Source: Caldilineae bacterium
GTDB taxonomy: Bacteria; Chloroflexota; Anaerolineae; J102
Direction of reading: 5' to 3'
Assembly: GCA_011176555.1 (NCBI GenBank)
Contig: DUEF01000001.1
Location: forward strand, 8,652-42,060
DNA: 33,409 nucleotides
Below the pieces are notes generated by a model, which did not search any database, was not told where the DNA came from, and was given only the letters and a program-made list of their open reading frames with translations. The translations under genes were made by a program, and so were the position numbers. Positions 25,672 through 33,017 of the stretch are shown here, piece by piece; the first letter of the stretch is position 1, and the number at the start of each line of letters is the position of its first letter.

Positions 25672-26232
25672 TCAGCCGATTTCGGGTTGCAGCAACCCGT
25701 AGTCATCTTCCCGTCGCCGATAGACGACATTGATGGTGCCAGTGTCAGCATTCAAGAAAACATAGAAATCATGTCCCAGGAGTTCCATCTGTTCGATGGC
25801 CTCTTCTGCATCCATTGGCTGGACTTCGAAGTGTTTCACCCGGGCGATACGGTTGCCGGCGGGTTCTTCTTCCTCTGTTGTTGCGGCCACGACTTCCTGT
25901 AAACTATTCACTTGGGCTACGGCTCGCTTGCTGTTGCGGGCAGTTTTACCCTTGAAACGGGCGATGCGCCGTTCAAGCTTATCGGAAACAGCATCGATGG
26001 AAGCGAACATATCGCCAGAGCGTTCTTCGGCCCGCAAAATGGTGCGACGGCTGCGTAAAGTCACCTGGGCGATGGCTCGATCGGAAGCGCTGCGAGTCTG
26101 CTCTTCGCGTAATTCGACTCTTGCTTCGTCGATGTCGGGTAAATATCTATCTAACCTGCCAATTTTCTTCTCGACATATTGCTCCAACCAGTCTGTCAGT
26201 TCTACGTTATGCGCCTGAATGATGAGCTTCAT
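25672..26232 (-). CDS. hpf: ribosome hibernation promoting factor, long form
   Basis: MKLIIQAHNVELTDWLEQYVEKKIGRLDRY... (S30AE/RaiA fold) plus a C-terminal dimerisation domain (KHFEVQPMDAEEAIEQMELLGHDFYVFLN). SD AAGGAGAAG before the ATG. Confidence 0.92.
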   Translation of the reverse strand: MKLIIQAHNVELTDWLEQYVEKKIGRLDRYLPDIDEARVELREEQTRSASDRAIAQVTLRSRRTILRAEERSGDMFASIDAVSDKLERRIARFKGKTARNSKRAVAQVNSLQEVVAATTEEEEPAGNRIARVKHFEVQPMDAEEAIEQMELLGHDFYVFLNADTGTINVVYRRREDDYGLLQPEIG

Positions 26233-26298
26233 AGGGCTTCTCCTTGCTGAGAATGAATTCCGGCGTGATTATGATGTGAGGCCGGGAGATGTGCAGGC

Positions 26299-26327
26299 CA
26301 TTCTACGACCTACAACCGGGTATGTCA
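26299..26327 (-). promoter_or_regulatory. hpf promoter TTGACA-17-TAGAAT
   Basis: The plus strand has tgtcaa at 26322-26327 and attcta at 26299-26304 with exactly 17 nt between them. This predicts a 5' UTR of about 60 nt. Confidence 0.6.
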
Positions 26328-26780
26328 ACCAACTTCCGGTCGCGATGAACTTCTGGCAGCGCGCAGCAACCAAGTTCCGAGGTCGTGTCGAAACGGTCTT
26401 GACCACCTGGCGCGCCAGCCAATCATCACTGCCCATTGTGTTGTTACCAAATCTTCAAGAAAATGAGGCATCGTCGCACTAGCTCCCAACGACAGTATAG
26501 CATGTTTTGGTTGATTTCTCAATAAGTGACAAGGAGTAGGGAGAGGTTTCAAATTTGGGCAAAGGGTAAAGGACAGCGTCCAGGCGAAACCGGAACGACA
26601 ACCATTCGCCGGGTTGTCAGCTAGCCCCGCCGAATCACGGATTCGTCTAGGCGCTGTCATGCGCTCTGCAGTGTGCCCCCCAAATTGAAGCACACTCCGA
26701 GGGGGTAACGGTTTGGAACTGCAGAACGACGTTGACACAACTTCAAACACAAAGGATACGCCACCCCAGCGCCGGCCGAT

Positions 26781-26809
26781 TTGACGTGACCCCACCCCTG
26801 TGCTATGCT
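26781..26809 (+). promoter_or_regulatory. promoter TTGACG-17-TATGCT for the aromatic-operon leader
   Basis: TTGACG at 26781-26786, a 17-nt spacer, and TATGCT at 26804-26809. Confidence 0.55.
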
Positions 26810-26912
26810 CCCGGCTATACAGTCTGACAATCACAGCACCATGCTCAGCCACCCTCGTCTTTCCGCCCCCTTATCTTCGGCCCACCAACTGGTGGAGACG
26901 ACTGGCCCGCGC

Positions 26913-27008
26913 ATGGTTGCCGCCTGGCGCGGGTTTTCTTTTGCCTTCTATTTCTATTTCTTTAGCTTTCGAAGGTCGCTCCGCCCCGGGCTGGTCAGAA
27001 CGATGTAA
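26913..27008 (+). CDS. leader peptide of a Phe/Tyr-sensing transcription attenuator (MVAAWRGFSFAFYFYFFSFRRSLRPGLVRTM)
   Basis: 31 codons. Codons 26934-26969 read F S F A F Y F Y F F S F, which is 7 Phe and 2 Tyr in 12 codons, with a Trp codon just upstream. The stop at 27006-27008 lies 25 nt before an intrinsic terminator. The Phe-branch biosynthetic operon is downstream. An in-frame ATG at 26841 is an alternative start. Confidence 0.65.
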   Translation: MVAAWRGFSFAFYFYFFSFRRSLRPGLVRTM

Positions 27009-27032
27009 ACATCTAACACTGACATCTCATCC

Positions 27033-27067
27033 GAGCGTGGAGCGACCAGCCCCACGCTCTTTTTATT
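27033..27067 (+). terminator. attenuator intrinsic terminator
   Basis: 8-bp stem gagcgtgg (27033-27040) / ccacgctc (27052-27059) with an 11-nt loop, followed by tttttatt (27060-27067). Confidence 0.7.
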
Positions 27068-27242
27068 GTCCGAATCAGGTTATGCTGATCTGGACGCCGG
27101 CTTAGAACAGCGTGGACGTTCCCTCGCTTCACCATCAACCAACACAGGAGCGTGTCCCATGTTGCAAGCCGGTCTCTGGTACTCAGCCCCCATCACCGCC
27201 CCCATCTGGGCGGTGACGCACCCACCCAAGGAGCAAGCTGTG

Positions 27243-27689
27243 ATGGTTTGTCGAGGCGTGCGCGGCGCCACCACCGTAACAAACAACTCACGCGAGGAAA
27301 TCCTCAGCGAAACCCGTCGACTGCTGGCCTTGATGATCCGAATTAACGGCATCGAGCCGGACGATGTCGCCAGCGCCATCTTCACCACCACGCGCGACAT
27401 CAATGCCGAATATCCCGCCCTGGCCGCGCGCCAGCTTGGCTGGCTGGATGCGGCCTTGTTGTGCGGGCACGAGATGGAAGTGCCGCGAGGATTGTCGATG
27501 TGCATCCGCATTTTGGTGCACTGGAACACCACCAAAACCCCGCGGGACATCCAACACGTCTACCTCGGCGAGGCCCAGGTTTTGCGGCCAGACAAAGCGA
27601 ATTTGCCGTCGGTCGATGAGGCGGAACTGACAGCGTGGATCGAGCAACAGGTGATGATCTGGAACCGCAATCAGGGAGGGGCCTCATGA
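27243..27689 (+). CDS. aroH: AroH-type (trimeric) chorismate mutase
   Basis: [12 protein letters not shown]...SREEIL..., [13 protein letters not shown]..., [10 protein letters not shown]..., [15 protein letters not shown] aligns in my memory with Bacillus AroH. AAGGAG lies 9 nt before ATG 27243. An in-frame ATG at 27159 also has AGGAG 8 nt upstream. Confidence 0.8.
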
Positions 27690-28555
27690 GTCAAACAACA
27701 ATCGTCGCCTTTCAGGGCGAGCATGGCGCTTACAGTGAAGAAGCGATCCACCAATTCTTCGGGGCGGAAGTGCAAACGCTACCCTGCCGCGCATTCGAGG
27801 ACATCTTCGCCGCGGTTGAGGCTGGTCGGGCTACACACGGCGCGGTGCCGGTGGAAAACTCACGGGCGGGCTCCATCAACAAAGCCTACGACCTCTTGCT
27901 CGAACACGATCTGAAGGTATGGGGCGAGATCTTGCTGCGCGTGCGGCATCATTTGATGACGATGCCAGGCGTCACGCTCGACGACATCATCAGCGTGCGC
28001 TCACATCCGCAAGCCCTGGCCCAGTGTGAACGCTACCTCAACCGTCAAGGCTGGCAGGCTGAAACCGCTTACGACACAGCCGGCAGCGCCAAACAGTTGG
28101 CCGCCGCACCCGAGCCCGGCATCGCCGTCATCGCCAGTCGCCTTGCCGCTGAAATCTATGGCCTGGATGTGCTCGCCTCCGGCATCGAAGACATAGCCTT
28201 CAACTACACCCGCTTTTTCGTTGTCCAGCCTGGCGATCCACCCCGTACAGGGGATGCCAAAACATCGCTGGTGTTCGCCACTTCGCACAGCCCCGGCGCG
28301 CTGGTGGCCTGCCTGAACGAATTCGCCTCGCGCGGCATCAATCTCACCAAGCTGGAAAGCCGCCCTCGTCGCGGGCGACTCTGGCATTATGTCTTCTATC
28401 TTGATTTCGAAGGCCACTGGCAAGACCCAGCGCCACGCGAAGCGTTGGTGGCGTTGCTGGGCCGGGCGACCTTCGTCAAACTCCTCGGTTCGTACCCTGC
28501 CGCCCCGATCCCCGAAGTGAACGGCGTCGCCCAGGCAGCACTGCTACAAATCTGA
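27686..28555 (+). CDS. pheA: prephenate dehydratase with a C-terminal ACT domain
   Basis: [38 protein letters not shown], and ACT region [39 protein letters not shown] overlap with the chorismate mutase stop. Confidence 0.9.
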
Positions 28556-28573: not shown

Positions 28574-29623
28574 ATGATCATCGTCATGAAAGTCAATTCC
28601 ACGGCAGCCGAAATCGGCGCCGTGATCGCCAGGGTGCAGGAAGCTGGCGCTGTTCCCCATCCCATTTACGGCGTTGAACGCACCGTGGTGGCCGTGGTGG
28701 GCGAAACCCGGGCCGTAGACCCCAAAACCTTCGTGCAGATGCCCGGCGTCGAGAAAATCACCAGCATCAGCGCCCCCTTCAAACTCGCCAGCCGCGAATC
28801 CCATCCCGATGACACCGTCATCCGTCTCAATGGCGTGCAGATCGGCGGCAAAGAACTGGTGGTGATGGCCGGCCCTTGCTCGGTGGAGAGTCGCAGCCAA
28901 TTGTTGGAAACCGCACACGCCGTCAAAGAAGCCGGGGCCCACATCCTGCGCGGGGGGGCGTTCAAACCGCGCTCATCACCCTATTCGTTCCAGGGCATGG
29001 GGCTCAAGGGGCTGGAAATCCTGGCCGAAGCTCGCGAAACCTACGGCTTGCACATCATTACCGAAGTGATGACGCCGCAAGCGGTGCCGATGGTGGCCGA
29101 ATATGCCGACATCCTGCAAATCGGGGCGCGCAACACACAAAATTACGGTCTGTTGCACGCGGTGGGCCGGGTGCAGCGCCCGGTGATGCTCAAACGCGGG
29201 ATGATGAGCAGCATGGAGGAGTTGTTGATGTCGGCCGAATACATCCTGGCTGGCGGCAACTACCGGGTCATACTCTGCGAACGCGGCATCCGCACATTCG
29301 AGAAGTACACTCGTAACACCTTCGATCTCAATGCCGTGCCGCTGCTCAAGCAACTCAGCCACCTCCCCGTGATCGCAGATCCCAGTCACGGCACAGGCCG
29401 TTGGGATATCGTCACCGCCATGGCCAGAGCGGGCGTGGCGGCCGGTGCAGACGGTCTCATGATCGAGGTGCACCCGAACCCGGCCGAAGCGCTGTCCGAC
29501 GGCCCGCAGTCGCTCAAACCCCGGCGTTTCGCCGATCTCATGCGACAGATCAAGCGCGTAGCCGAAGCTGTTGACCGCAGCCTCAGCACTGTGCCGGATG
29601 TCGCACCGGAGATGGTTCCTTAG
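28574..29623 (+). CDS. 3-deoxy-7-phosphoheptulonate (DAHP) synthase, type I-beta with an N-terminal ferredoxin-like regulatory domain
   Basis: N-terminus [25 protein letters not shown]... (regulatory domain as in Thermotoga-type enzymes). Then [37 protein letters not shown], and DPSHG. Confidence 0.9.
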
Positions 29624-32824: not shown

Positions 32825-32896
<72 letters not shown>

Positions 32897-32941: not shown

Positions 32942-33017
32942 GGCGACGTAGCTCAGGAGGCAGAGCAAGCGGCTCATAATCGCTGTGTCGGTGGTTCAAG
33001 TCCACCCGTCGCCACCA
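32942..33017 (+). tRNA. elongator-type tRNA with CAU anticodon (tRNA-Met, or tRNA-Ile2 if lysidinylated), CCA encoded
   Basis: GGCGACG acceptor stem, D-stem GCUC/GAGC (C11:G24, elongator type), anticodon arm AGCGG-CUCAUAA-UCGCU, T-arm GGUGG-UUCAAGU-CCACC, CGUCGCC, then A and CCA. Confidence 0.88.

Follow-up and report, generated by a model that had tools for sequence, protein, structure and literature searches.

A putative ribosome-mediated attenuator with a phenylalanine- and tyrosine-rich leader peptide upstream of the aroH-pheA-DAHP synthase operon in Chloroflexota

The aroH-pheA-DAHP synthase operon and its leader

An operon for aromatic amino acid synthesis lies in a stretch of 33,409 nucleotides (nt) of DNA from Caldilineae bacterium (assembly GCA_011176555.1, contig DUEF01000001.1); we refer to this whole stretch as the window, and give positions within it for the forward (+) strand unless stated otherwise. 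The operon consists of aroH, encoding an AroH-type (type I) chorismate mutase (27243-27689 from the canonical start, with a long form from 27159; Pfam CM_1, E = 1.5e-42), pheA, encoding a prephenate dehydratase (PDT) with an ACT domain (27686-28555; Pfam PDT, E = 1.1e-61, plus ACT), and a gene for a DAHP synthase with an N-terminal ferredoxin-like regulatory domain (28574-29623; DAHP_synth_1, E = 1.5e-81, and DAHP_snth_FXD, E = 9e-20). These Pfam assignments agree with the gene calls of a first-pass annotation made from the sequence, which had also proposed that a ribosome-mediated attenuator with a phenylalanine (Phe)- and tyrosine (Tyr)-rich leader peptide precedes the operon. We followed up this proposal by comparing related loci and by folding the leader. 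The pheA start overlaps the aroH stop (ATGA, 27686-27689), suggesting that these two genes are translationally coupled.

A sigma-70-type promoter (TTGACG at 26781-26786, a 17-nt spacer and TATGCT at 26804-26809, with an extended -10 TG at 26801-26802) is present upstream of the operon at 26781-26809, as had been annotated, and scored 9/12 in a promoter scan; transcription would start near 26816. Downstream of it, an open reading frame (ORF) of 55 codons plus TAA extends from 26841 to 27008 (MLSHPRLSAPLSSAHQLVETTGPRMVAAWRGFSFAFYFYFFSFRRSLRPGLVRTM; the frame ends ...WRGFSFAFYFYFFSFRRSLRPGLVRTM), and its C-terminal end is ...AAWRGFSFAFYFYFFSFRRSLRPGLVRTM-TAA, with the stop codon at 27006-27008. 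The codons at 26934-26969 of this leader ORF read F S F A F Y F Y F F S F, so that the seven Phe codons (four TTT, three TTC) and two Tyr codons (TAT) previously noticed within 12 codons are indeed there, and nine of the 12 codons specify the operon's own amino acids. No other stretch in the six frames of the 33-kb window has at least six Phe or Tyr codons in 12, and a run with at least seven in 12 turned up only once in the 438 kb of DNA from control loci.

An intrinsic terminator (27033-27067) follows the leader ORF ahead of aroH and is composed of the stem GAGCGUGG (27033-27040) / CCACGCUC (27052-27059), an 11-nt loop (27041-27051) and the U-tract UUUUUAUU (27060-27067). Its 8-base pair (bp) stem was found at the coordinates given in the first-pass annotation, and the terminator (-17.6 kcal/mol) formed in every unconstrained RNAfold fold of the window's leader; a simple terminator scan missed it because the scan's loop limit was 8 nt. 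No promoter-like site was detected by the promoter scan from the terminator to aroH. The 5' strand of a competing antiterminator (region 2; 26974-26984, GGUCGCUCCGC) lies in the 3' part of the leader ORF and pairs with region 3 (27037-27047), which is made up of the 3' half of the terminator 5' arm and the terminator loop. This pairing contains the first of two 9-nt complementarities that had been pointed out earlier (26974-26982 with 27039-27047) and extends it to 11 bp (26974-26984 with 27037-27047); it is conserved and covaries, as described below. The second complementarity (26988-26996 with 27044-27052) also exists but is specific to the window; the loop sequence differs in relatives, and we rejected this pairing as part of the conserved design. 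Relative to dinucleotide shuffles, the fold of the whole leader (26816-27075) had z = -6.1, and that of 26900-27070 had z = -4.0.

We interpret this leader as a ribosome-mediated (leader-peptide) transcription attenuator that would sense charged tRNA-Phe and tRNA-Tyr and control the aroH-pheA-DAHP synthase operon, and estimate the probability of this reading at about 85%. The attenuator proposed in the first-pass annotation is backed by conservation, by the terminator, by covariation and by folding, which are taken up in turn below.

Recurrence and covariation of the leader in related loci

A search with the AroH protein returned close homologues named Chloroflexota or Caldilineales, and scans of genome and metagenome contigs yielded 160 AroH loci. 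We assigned a locus to the leader class if a stop-free stretch of 12 codons with 7-10 Phe or Tyr codons, or a WRGF[Y/S]F motif, was present within 650 nt upstream of aroH. The first-pass annotation had suggested looking upstream of aroH in relatives for a short ORF rich in aromatic codons followed by a terminator, and this combination recurred in 48 of the 160 loci. These loci share one layout, consisting of the promoter, the Phe/Tyr-rich ORF, its stop, the terminator and aroH-pheA-DAHP synthase, with the order of leader and genes retained wherever the contig extends far enough. Of the 48 loci, 46 have the terminator ahead of the first structural gene, at 22-45 nt past the leader stop. Among 42 distinct leader loci that were scanned, 40 have a promoter of the form TTGAC-17/18-TAnnnT in the same position, and the remaining two have too little upstream sequence. 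Nearly every named genome record in the class is labelled as Chloroflexota or as one of its groups (Anaerolineae, Caldilineae, Chloroflexia), most often Anaerolineae or Caldilineales; metagenome contigs in the class have no taxon label. The layout was absent from AroH loci labelled Planctomycetota or Pirellulales, in which the Phe/Tyr score was 2-5, equal to background.

In 39 of 40 relatives, the leader frame runs uninterrupted to its stop (median 58 amino acids (aa), range 48-92), even though the N-terminal half of the leader is not conserved. The in-frame ATG of the relatives lies at a median of 31 nt past the -10 box, and the ATG equivalent to 26841 is kept when the eleven closest sequences are aligned. 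In relatives, the ATG at 26913, from which the first-pass annotation had begun the ORF, is replaced by GTG or missing; in the window it sits inside the loop of a strong hairpin (26905-26934), and we rejected it as the start. Because the ATG at 26841 is conserved and that at 26913 is not, the leader is most likely a 55-aa peptide starting at 26841; the frame, the stop and the Phe and Tyr content of the earlier ORF thus stand, and its start does not. Promoter, in-frame ATG and open frame together make up a short promoter-proximal ORF, and a Shine-Dalgarno (SD) sequence before it is weak or absent in many loci, including the window. Two loci, L043 and L044, from metagenome-assembled genomes (MAGs) of Caldilineaceae / Anaerolineales, have the leader ATG just 6 nt past the -10 box, so that the mRNA may begin without an untranslated leader; the sequences of terminator and antiterminator in these two loci are quite different (GAGGGCGAUCC / GGAUCGCUUC).

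Codon content bears on the question of what sets the switch. A different reading accepts the switch as real and has it set by a trans-acting factor, such as a tRNA (as in a T-box), a small molecule binding a riboswitch or a protein of the TRAP or PyrR type, so that the Phe/Tyr frame would be a by-product of a tract rich in U. The U-rich tract does double as the tail of an upstream hairpin, the window's leader ATG has no SD sequence, and the preference of the run for TTT and TAT could reflect selection for U and not for an amino acid. Among 41 distinct runs, TTT:TTC was 165:35 and TAT:TAC was 83:32, and in aroH, pheA and the DAHP synthase gene of the window together TTC:TTT was 19:2 and TAC:TAT was 13:6; the leader run therefore prefers codons that the structural genes avoid, a bias compatible with slow decoding as well as with a requirement for a U-tract. 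Against a trans-acting factor, the Phe and Tyr codons are abundant only in the one frame that is open from the conserved ATG to the conserved stop, at a mean of 7.7 per 12 codons (Phe 4.9, Tyr 2.8, with Trp at 0.3) compared with 2.0 and 2.5 in the other two frames, and this frame has stayed open in all but one of the 40 relatives while its N-terminal sequence varied. The stop, moreover, always lies after region 2 and before the terminator, the antiterminator helix is plain and lacks the T-box bulge, and no T-box or other Rfam family gave a hit at E values up to 10. We consider control by a trans-acting factor quite improbable.

The potential of region 2 to pair with the terminator recurs across the class. 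When the range from the end of the Phe/Tyr run to just before the terminator was searched, the best partner of the terminator 5' arm and loop fell in the 3' part of the ORF in every locus. The antiterminator helix spans 11-19 bp with no interruption, and its duplex averages -21 kcal/mol, comparable to the terminators. Cognate strands paired with a mean of -21.3 kcal/mol, as opposed to -16.6 kcal/mol for non-cognate strands, and the z of the duplex between segment and terminator, relative to dinucleotide shuffles, was -3.5 in the window and -3.4 on average, and below -2 in 76% of loci.

The covariation check that had been recommended along with the proposed attenuator turned up compensatory changes in both helices, as counted in an alignment (A3) of 39 distinct sequences. 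For the antiterminator, 82% of cells were in standard pairs, falling to 28-52% when the partners were slid by 1-3 columns, and changes on both sides were seen in eight of 12 pairs (45 cells). The terminator had 95.7% of cells in standard pairs (25-73% with partners slid by 1-3 columns) and changes on both sides in five of nine pairs (15 cells). Neither covariation score was reached by any of 500 shuffles. Examples of strands that have changed together, with the antiterminator 5' strand given first and its partner in the terminator second, are GUCGCUCC / GGAGCGAC, GCCGCUCC / GGAGCGGU, CCGUCCCACGC / GCGUGGGACGG, CGCCAGCCCGC / GCGAGGUUGGCG and GGAUCGCUUC / GAGGGCGAUCC.

This covariation also bears on the idea that the ORF is a true gene for a small protein rich in aromatic residues and ends in a terminator of its own, with aroH transcribed separately and the antiterminator incidental. 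Such a protein would agree with a length of 48-92 aa, which is long for a leader, and with the conservation of the C-terminal motif (WRGF..., ...SLPAGQG) as peptide. The conserved peptide motifs coincide with pairing segments, though, PR/WRG with the hairpin at 26905-26934 and RSL/PHA with region 2, and covariation of the latter with the terminator is not what constraint on a protein would produce. That the N-terminal half is unconserved, that the element is always immediately upstream of aroH and that no promoter-like site separates the terminator from aroH likewise argue against a free-standing gene, and we give this explanation a very slim chance. That the leader is a chance mix of promoter-like site, T-rich tract and hairpin is a negligible prospect: a simple terminator scan does yield as many sites in shuffled sequence, but such Phe/Tyr runs come about once per 438 kb of background and the arrangement recurs in 48 loci with covariation, so that the comparative data already refute it.

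Dependence of the fold on ribosome position

The first-pass annotation had also advised folding the leader with and without a ribosome footprint, and the fold depended on ribosome position as predicted. We folded the window in two variants. With a 30-nt footprint masked and pairing across the ribosome allowed (variant 1), an A-site on any of the first three Phe codons gave the antiterminator (11/11 bp), and an A-site on later codons, a ribosome at the stop or no ribosome gave the terminator (8/8 bp). When only the RNA 3' of the ribosome was allowed to fold (variant 2), which is the classical assumption that no helix closes around a ribosome, the antiterminator was the minimum-energy fold for A-sites at 26934-26958 (codons 1-9 of the run), and the terminator won once the footprint touched region 2 or the ribosome was at the stop. 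Among 43 distinct loci, a ribosome at the stop gave the terminator in all 43, and the absence of a ribosome gave it in 39. The pairing 26974-26984/27037-27047 and the terminator are thus mutually exclusive, as both covariation and the position-dependent folds indicate.

On these grounds the attenuator could operate as follows. Transcription would begin near 26816, and the 55-codon leader would be translated as RNA polymerase proceeds. When charged Phe or Tyr tRNA is scarce, the ribosome would stall in the run at 26934-26969 and leave region 2 (26974-26984) naked, and region 2 would pair with region 3 (27037-27047) once the latter is made. The kinetic order would favor this pairing, as region 3 would meet region 2 before region 4, the terminator 3' arm, exists; the terminator stem would then be blocked, and polymerase would read into aroH. 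When supply is good, the ribosome would pass region 2, reach the stop at 27006 and sit between regions 2 and 3. In the window folds, a spacer hairpin (GUCAG...CUGAC, 26994-27023) encloses the leader stop (27006-27008), and may bring regions 2 and 3 together in the window if the stop is free of ribosomes; a ribosome at the stop would melt it, 27033-27040/27052-27059 would form, and transcription would end at 27060-27067.

One step differs from the first-pass annotation, according to which a ribosome at the stop would cover the antiterminator segments. Its footprint (about 26991-27020) misses 26974-26984 and lies between this strand and the terminator. In most loci, 12-24 nt separate the end of region 2 from the stop, so the terminating ribosome would abut or insulate region 2 without covering it. 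Every locus has its stop codon downstream of region 2 and upstream of the terminator, and this placement may be a design principle of these leaders.

Several observations weigh against the attenuator as we describe it, and the distance just given between region 2 and the stop is one of them. Stalls at codons 6-9 of the run gave the terminator in variant 1. At least three antiterminating stall positions were found at equilibrium in only 19 of 43 loci, so the switch would have to be kinetic in the rest; equilibrium folding as proof of the switch, which holds for the window and its close group, was for this reason set aside. No SD sequence precedes the window's leader ATG at 26841, and the median predicted pairing with the anti-SD sequence in relatives is only -3.1 kcal/mol. 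The leader is long, with 48-92 aa compared with about 15 aa for pheL, the leader peptide gene of enterobacterial pheA. Finally, the host organisms are uncultured and represented by MAGs, and our account is based on sequence comparison and folding.

Further leader elements and known attenuators

A GC-rich hairpin, which we designated 0:1, precedes the Phe codons (26905-26934; GCCCGCGC, loop, GCGCGGGU; -21 kcal/mol) and holds the ATG at 26913 in its loop. The U-rich UUUCUUUUGCC, with which the Phe run begins, follows it directly and gives it the look of a hairpin for termination or pausing; it was flagged as terminator-like by the terminator scan and received one chance-level Rfam hit. Its pairs were counted in each sequence separately, as the MAFFT alignment left the 5' arms out of register. 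Equivalent hairpins of -14.5 to -27 kcal/mol were present in 21 of 22 related sequences, with a switch from G-C to A-U at one position, and hairpins of -12 kcal/mol or stronger were found in 23 of 42 distinct loci, compared with 12% of control positions. Translation of the two arms yields the conserved peptide motif PR...WRG. The 3' arm (region 1) can alternatively pair with region 2, and does so in the unconstrained minimum free energy (MFE) fold. We propose that this hairpin may pause or gate polymerase so that it does not outrun the first ribosome.

Downstream of the terminator, aroH has two possible starts. In close relatives as in the window, an ATG at 27159 lies in frame 84 nt upstream of 27243, behind an SD sequence (SD1; AGGAG, 27146-27150), and opens a 28-codon N-terminal extension of AroH (the segment 27146-27242) that contains a second SD sequence (SD2; AAGGAG, 27228-27233). 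This extension, with the motif ML..GLWY...P....W, recurs in 20 loci, in 16 of them at identical length. Its variation falls mainly on third codon positions (entropy 1.10, versus 0.57 and 0.43 at the other two), which argues that the extension is translated; since the AGGAG core of the internal SD2 shows no nucleotide changes, the canonical start at 27243 is probably used as well. These features suggest two AroH isoforms or a regulatory fusion of an upstream ORF. An AlphaFold2 model of the 176-aa AroH says little on the matter, as its residues 1-30 were of low confidence (predicted local distance difference test 50-67).

A copy of the terminator 5' arm, region 5 (CAGCGUGG-ACGUUCC, 27108-27122), follows the terminator and can pair either with the terminator 3' arm (27052-27058) or with SD1 and the first aroH AUG (27147-27164). 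In folds of 14 close relatives, this repeat toggled between the two pairings according to the availability of the terminator 5' arm. In the close group, all changes seen in its pairings were from G-C to G-U and none was compensatory, and in the window the pairing of regions 4 and 5 was not the MFE. A coupling of antitermination to translation initiation by this repeat is therefore put forward tentatively.

Combining these elements, it is conceivable that the leader is a relay of seven alternating complementary copies (segments 0 to 6) in which one leader ribosome would operate a gate, a switch and a translation relay, though we regard this extended scheme as rather unlikely. The gate would be the hairpin at 26905-26934 with the Phe codons as its U-tract, passing only those polymerases that are followed by a ribosome, and the switch would be the Phe/Tyr-sensing antiterminator and terminator. 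In close relatives, the freed terminator 3' arm would then capture 27108-27122, which would otherwise sequester SD1 and the first AUG (27146-27164). If true, the relay would decide between an AroH that carries the conserved 28 extra residues (MLQxGLWY..P..W) and one begun at the internal start, 27243. In the trp leader of Bacillus subtilis, TRAP exerts dual control over termination and trpE translation. The likeness, if the relay is real, would be that one sensor sets both termination and the translation initiation of the first gene; the sensor is a protein there and would be the ribosome here, where the relay consists of a pairing potential conserved in close relatives only.

The attenuator itself was compared with known families and systems. 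Rfam was scanned over the whole window at gathering thresholds and over 26400-27400 at E values up to 10, and no family matched the leader region; only two tRNAs passed, accompanied by chance-level hits to rdlD and Ocean-VII. Membership in the enterobacterial pheL family Phe_leader (RF01859) was rejected on the lack of a hit at the gathering threshold or, in 26400-27400, at E values up to 10, and membership in the T-box family (RF00230) was rejected on the lack of an Rfam hit and on the uninterrupted antiterminator helix. In the literature searched, we found no attenuator described for Chloroflexi or Anaerolineae; a prior mention is possible in Lopatovskaya et al. 2010 (cited in PMC4833913), reportedly a survey of attenuation across bacteria. 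In a survey of Actinobacteria, genes for Phe or Tyr were not found to have an RNA element (PMC1262725), and the 53 pheL genes known are all from gamma-proteobacteria, with possible non-proteobacterial cases only in Bacteroides and Desulfobacterium (PMC3082878).

The pheL-pheA system, with the related pheM-pheST, is closest by mechanism. In it, too, a short ORF with Phe codons precedes genes for chorismate mutase and prephenate dehydratase activity, and the position of the ribosome picks antiterminator or terminator (PMC3082878, PMC11802643). In contrast to the roughly 15-aa pheL, the leader described here has about 55 aa (48-92 in relatives), and mixes Tyr with Phe at roughly five Phe to three Tyr. 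It precedes genes for a separate AroH-type chorismate mutase, a PDT and a DAHP synthase and not one for a fused AroQ-PDT, it carries an extra terminator-like hairpin ahead of the Phe codons, and it belongs to the phylum Chloroflexota. Its stop lies after the antiterminator strand and not before it, which sets it apart from both pheL and trpL.

By gene content, the closest system is aroR-aroF of Corynebacterium glutamicum, a non-proteobacterial case in which, as Neshat et al. 2014 is summarised in PMC11802643, a Phe-Tyr-Phe leader attenuates a DAHP synthase operon in response to Phe and not Tyr. According to this summary, aroR has three regulatory residues, compared with nine in 12 codons here, and phylum and gene set differ as well; we compared the two by description, and the resemblance is a functional one. 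T-box riboswitches, which are known in some Chloroflexi (PMC2494555), also place a switch between terminator and antiterminator before amino acid genes to report tRNA charging. The leader described here differs in having a translated, codon-enriched ORF in place of a specifier loop and T-box bulge.

Upstream of the leader, hpf, encoding a ribosome hibernation factor, lies on the reverse strand (25672-26232), separated from the leader promoter by a spacer of about 550 nt (26233-26780) that contains a near-consensus promoter on the reverse strand (TTGACA-17-TAGAAT, 26328-26300), which presumably serves hpf. This upstream context (hpf, LMW-PTP, GNAT and the spacer 26233-26780) was matched in none of the fetched loci. 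Elsewhere in the window, two tRNA genes (32825-32896 and 32942-33014) lie 46 nt apart, both with a CAU anticodon loop and hence of the Met or Ile2 type.

The leader most likely serves to switch on aromatic amino acid genes when charged Phe and Tyr tRNAs are low in these Chloroflexota. This would carry leader-peptide attenuation of aromatic amino acid synthesis into the Chloroflexota (Anaerolineae/Caldilineales), and, at the DAHP synthase, which catalyzes the first common step, would add control by Phe and Tyr at the RNA level to that of the allosteric domain. The unusual geometry, with a long leader, a stop between the antiterminator strand and the terminator, and Phe codons that could serve as a U-tract, raises questions of attenuator design. 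With some 48 examples and covariation, the element would make up an RNA family, for which Rfam has no model, that could be used in the annotation of MAGs.

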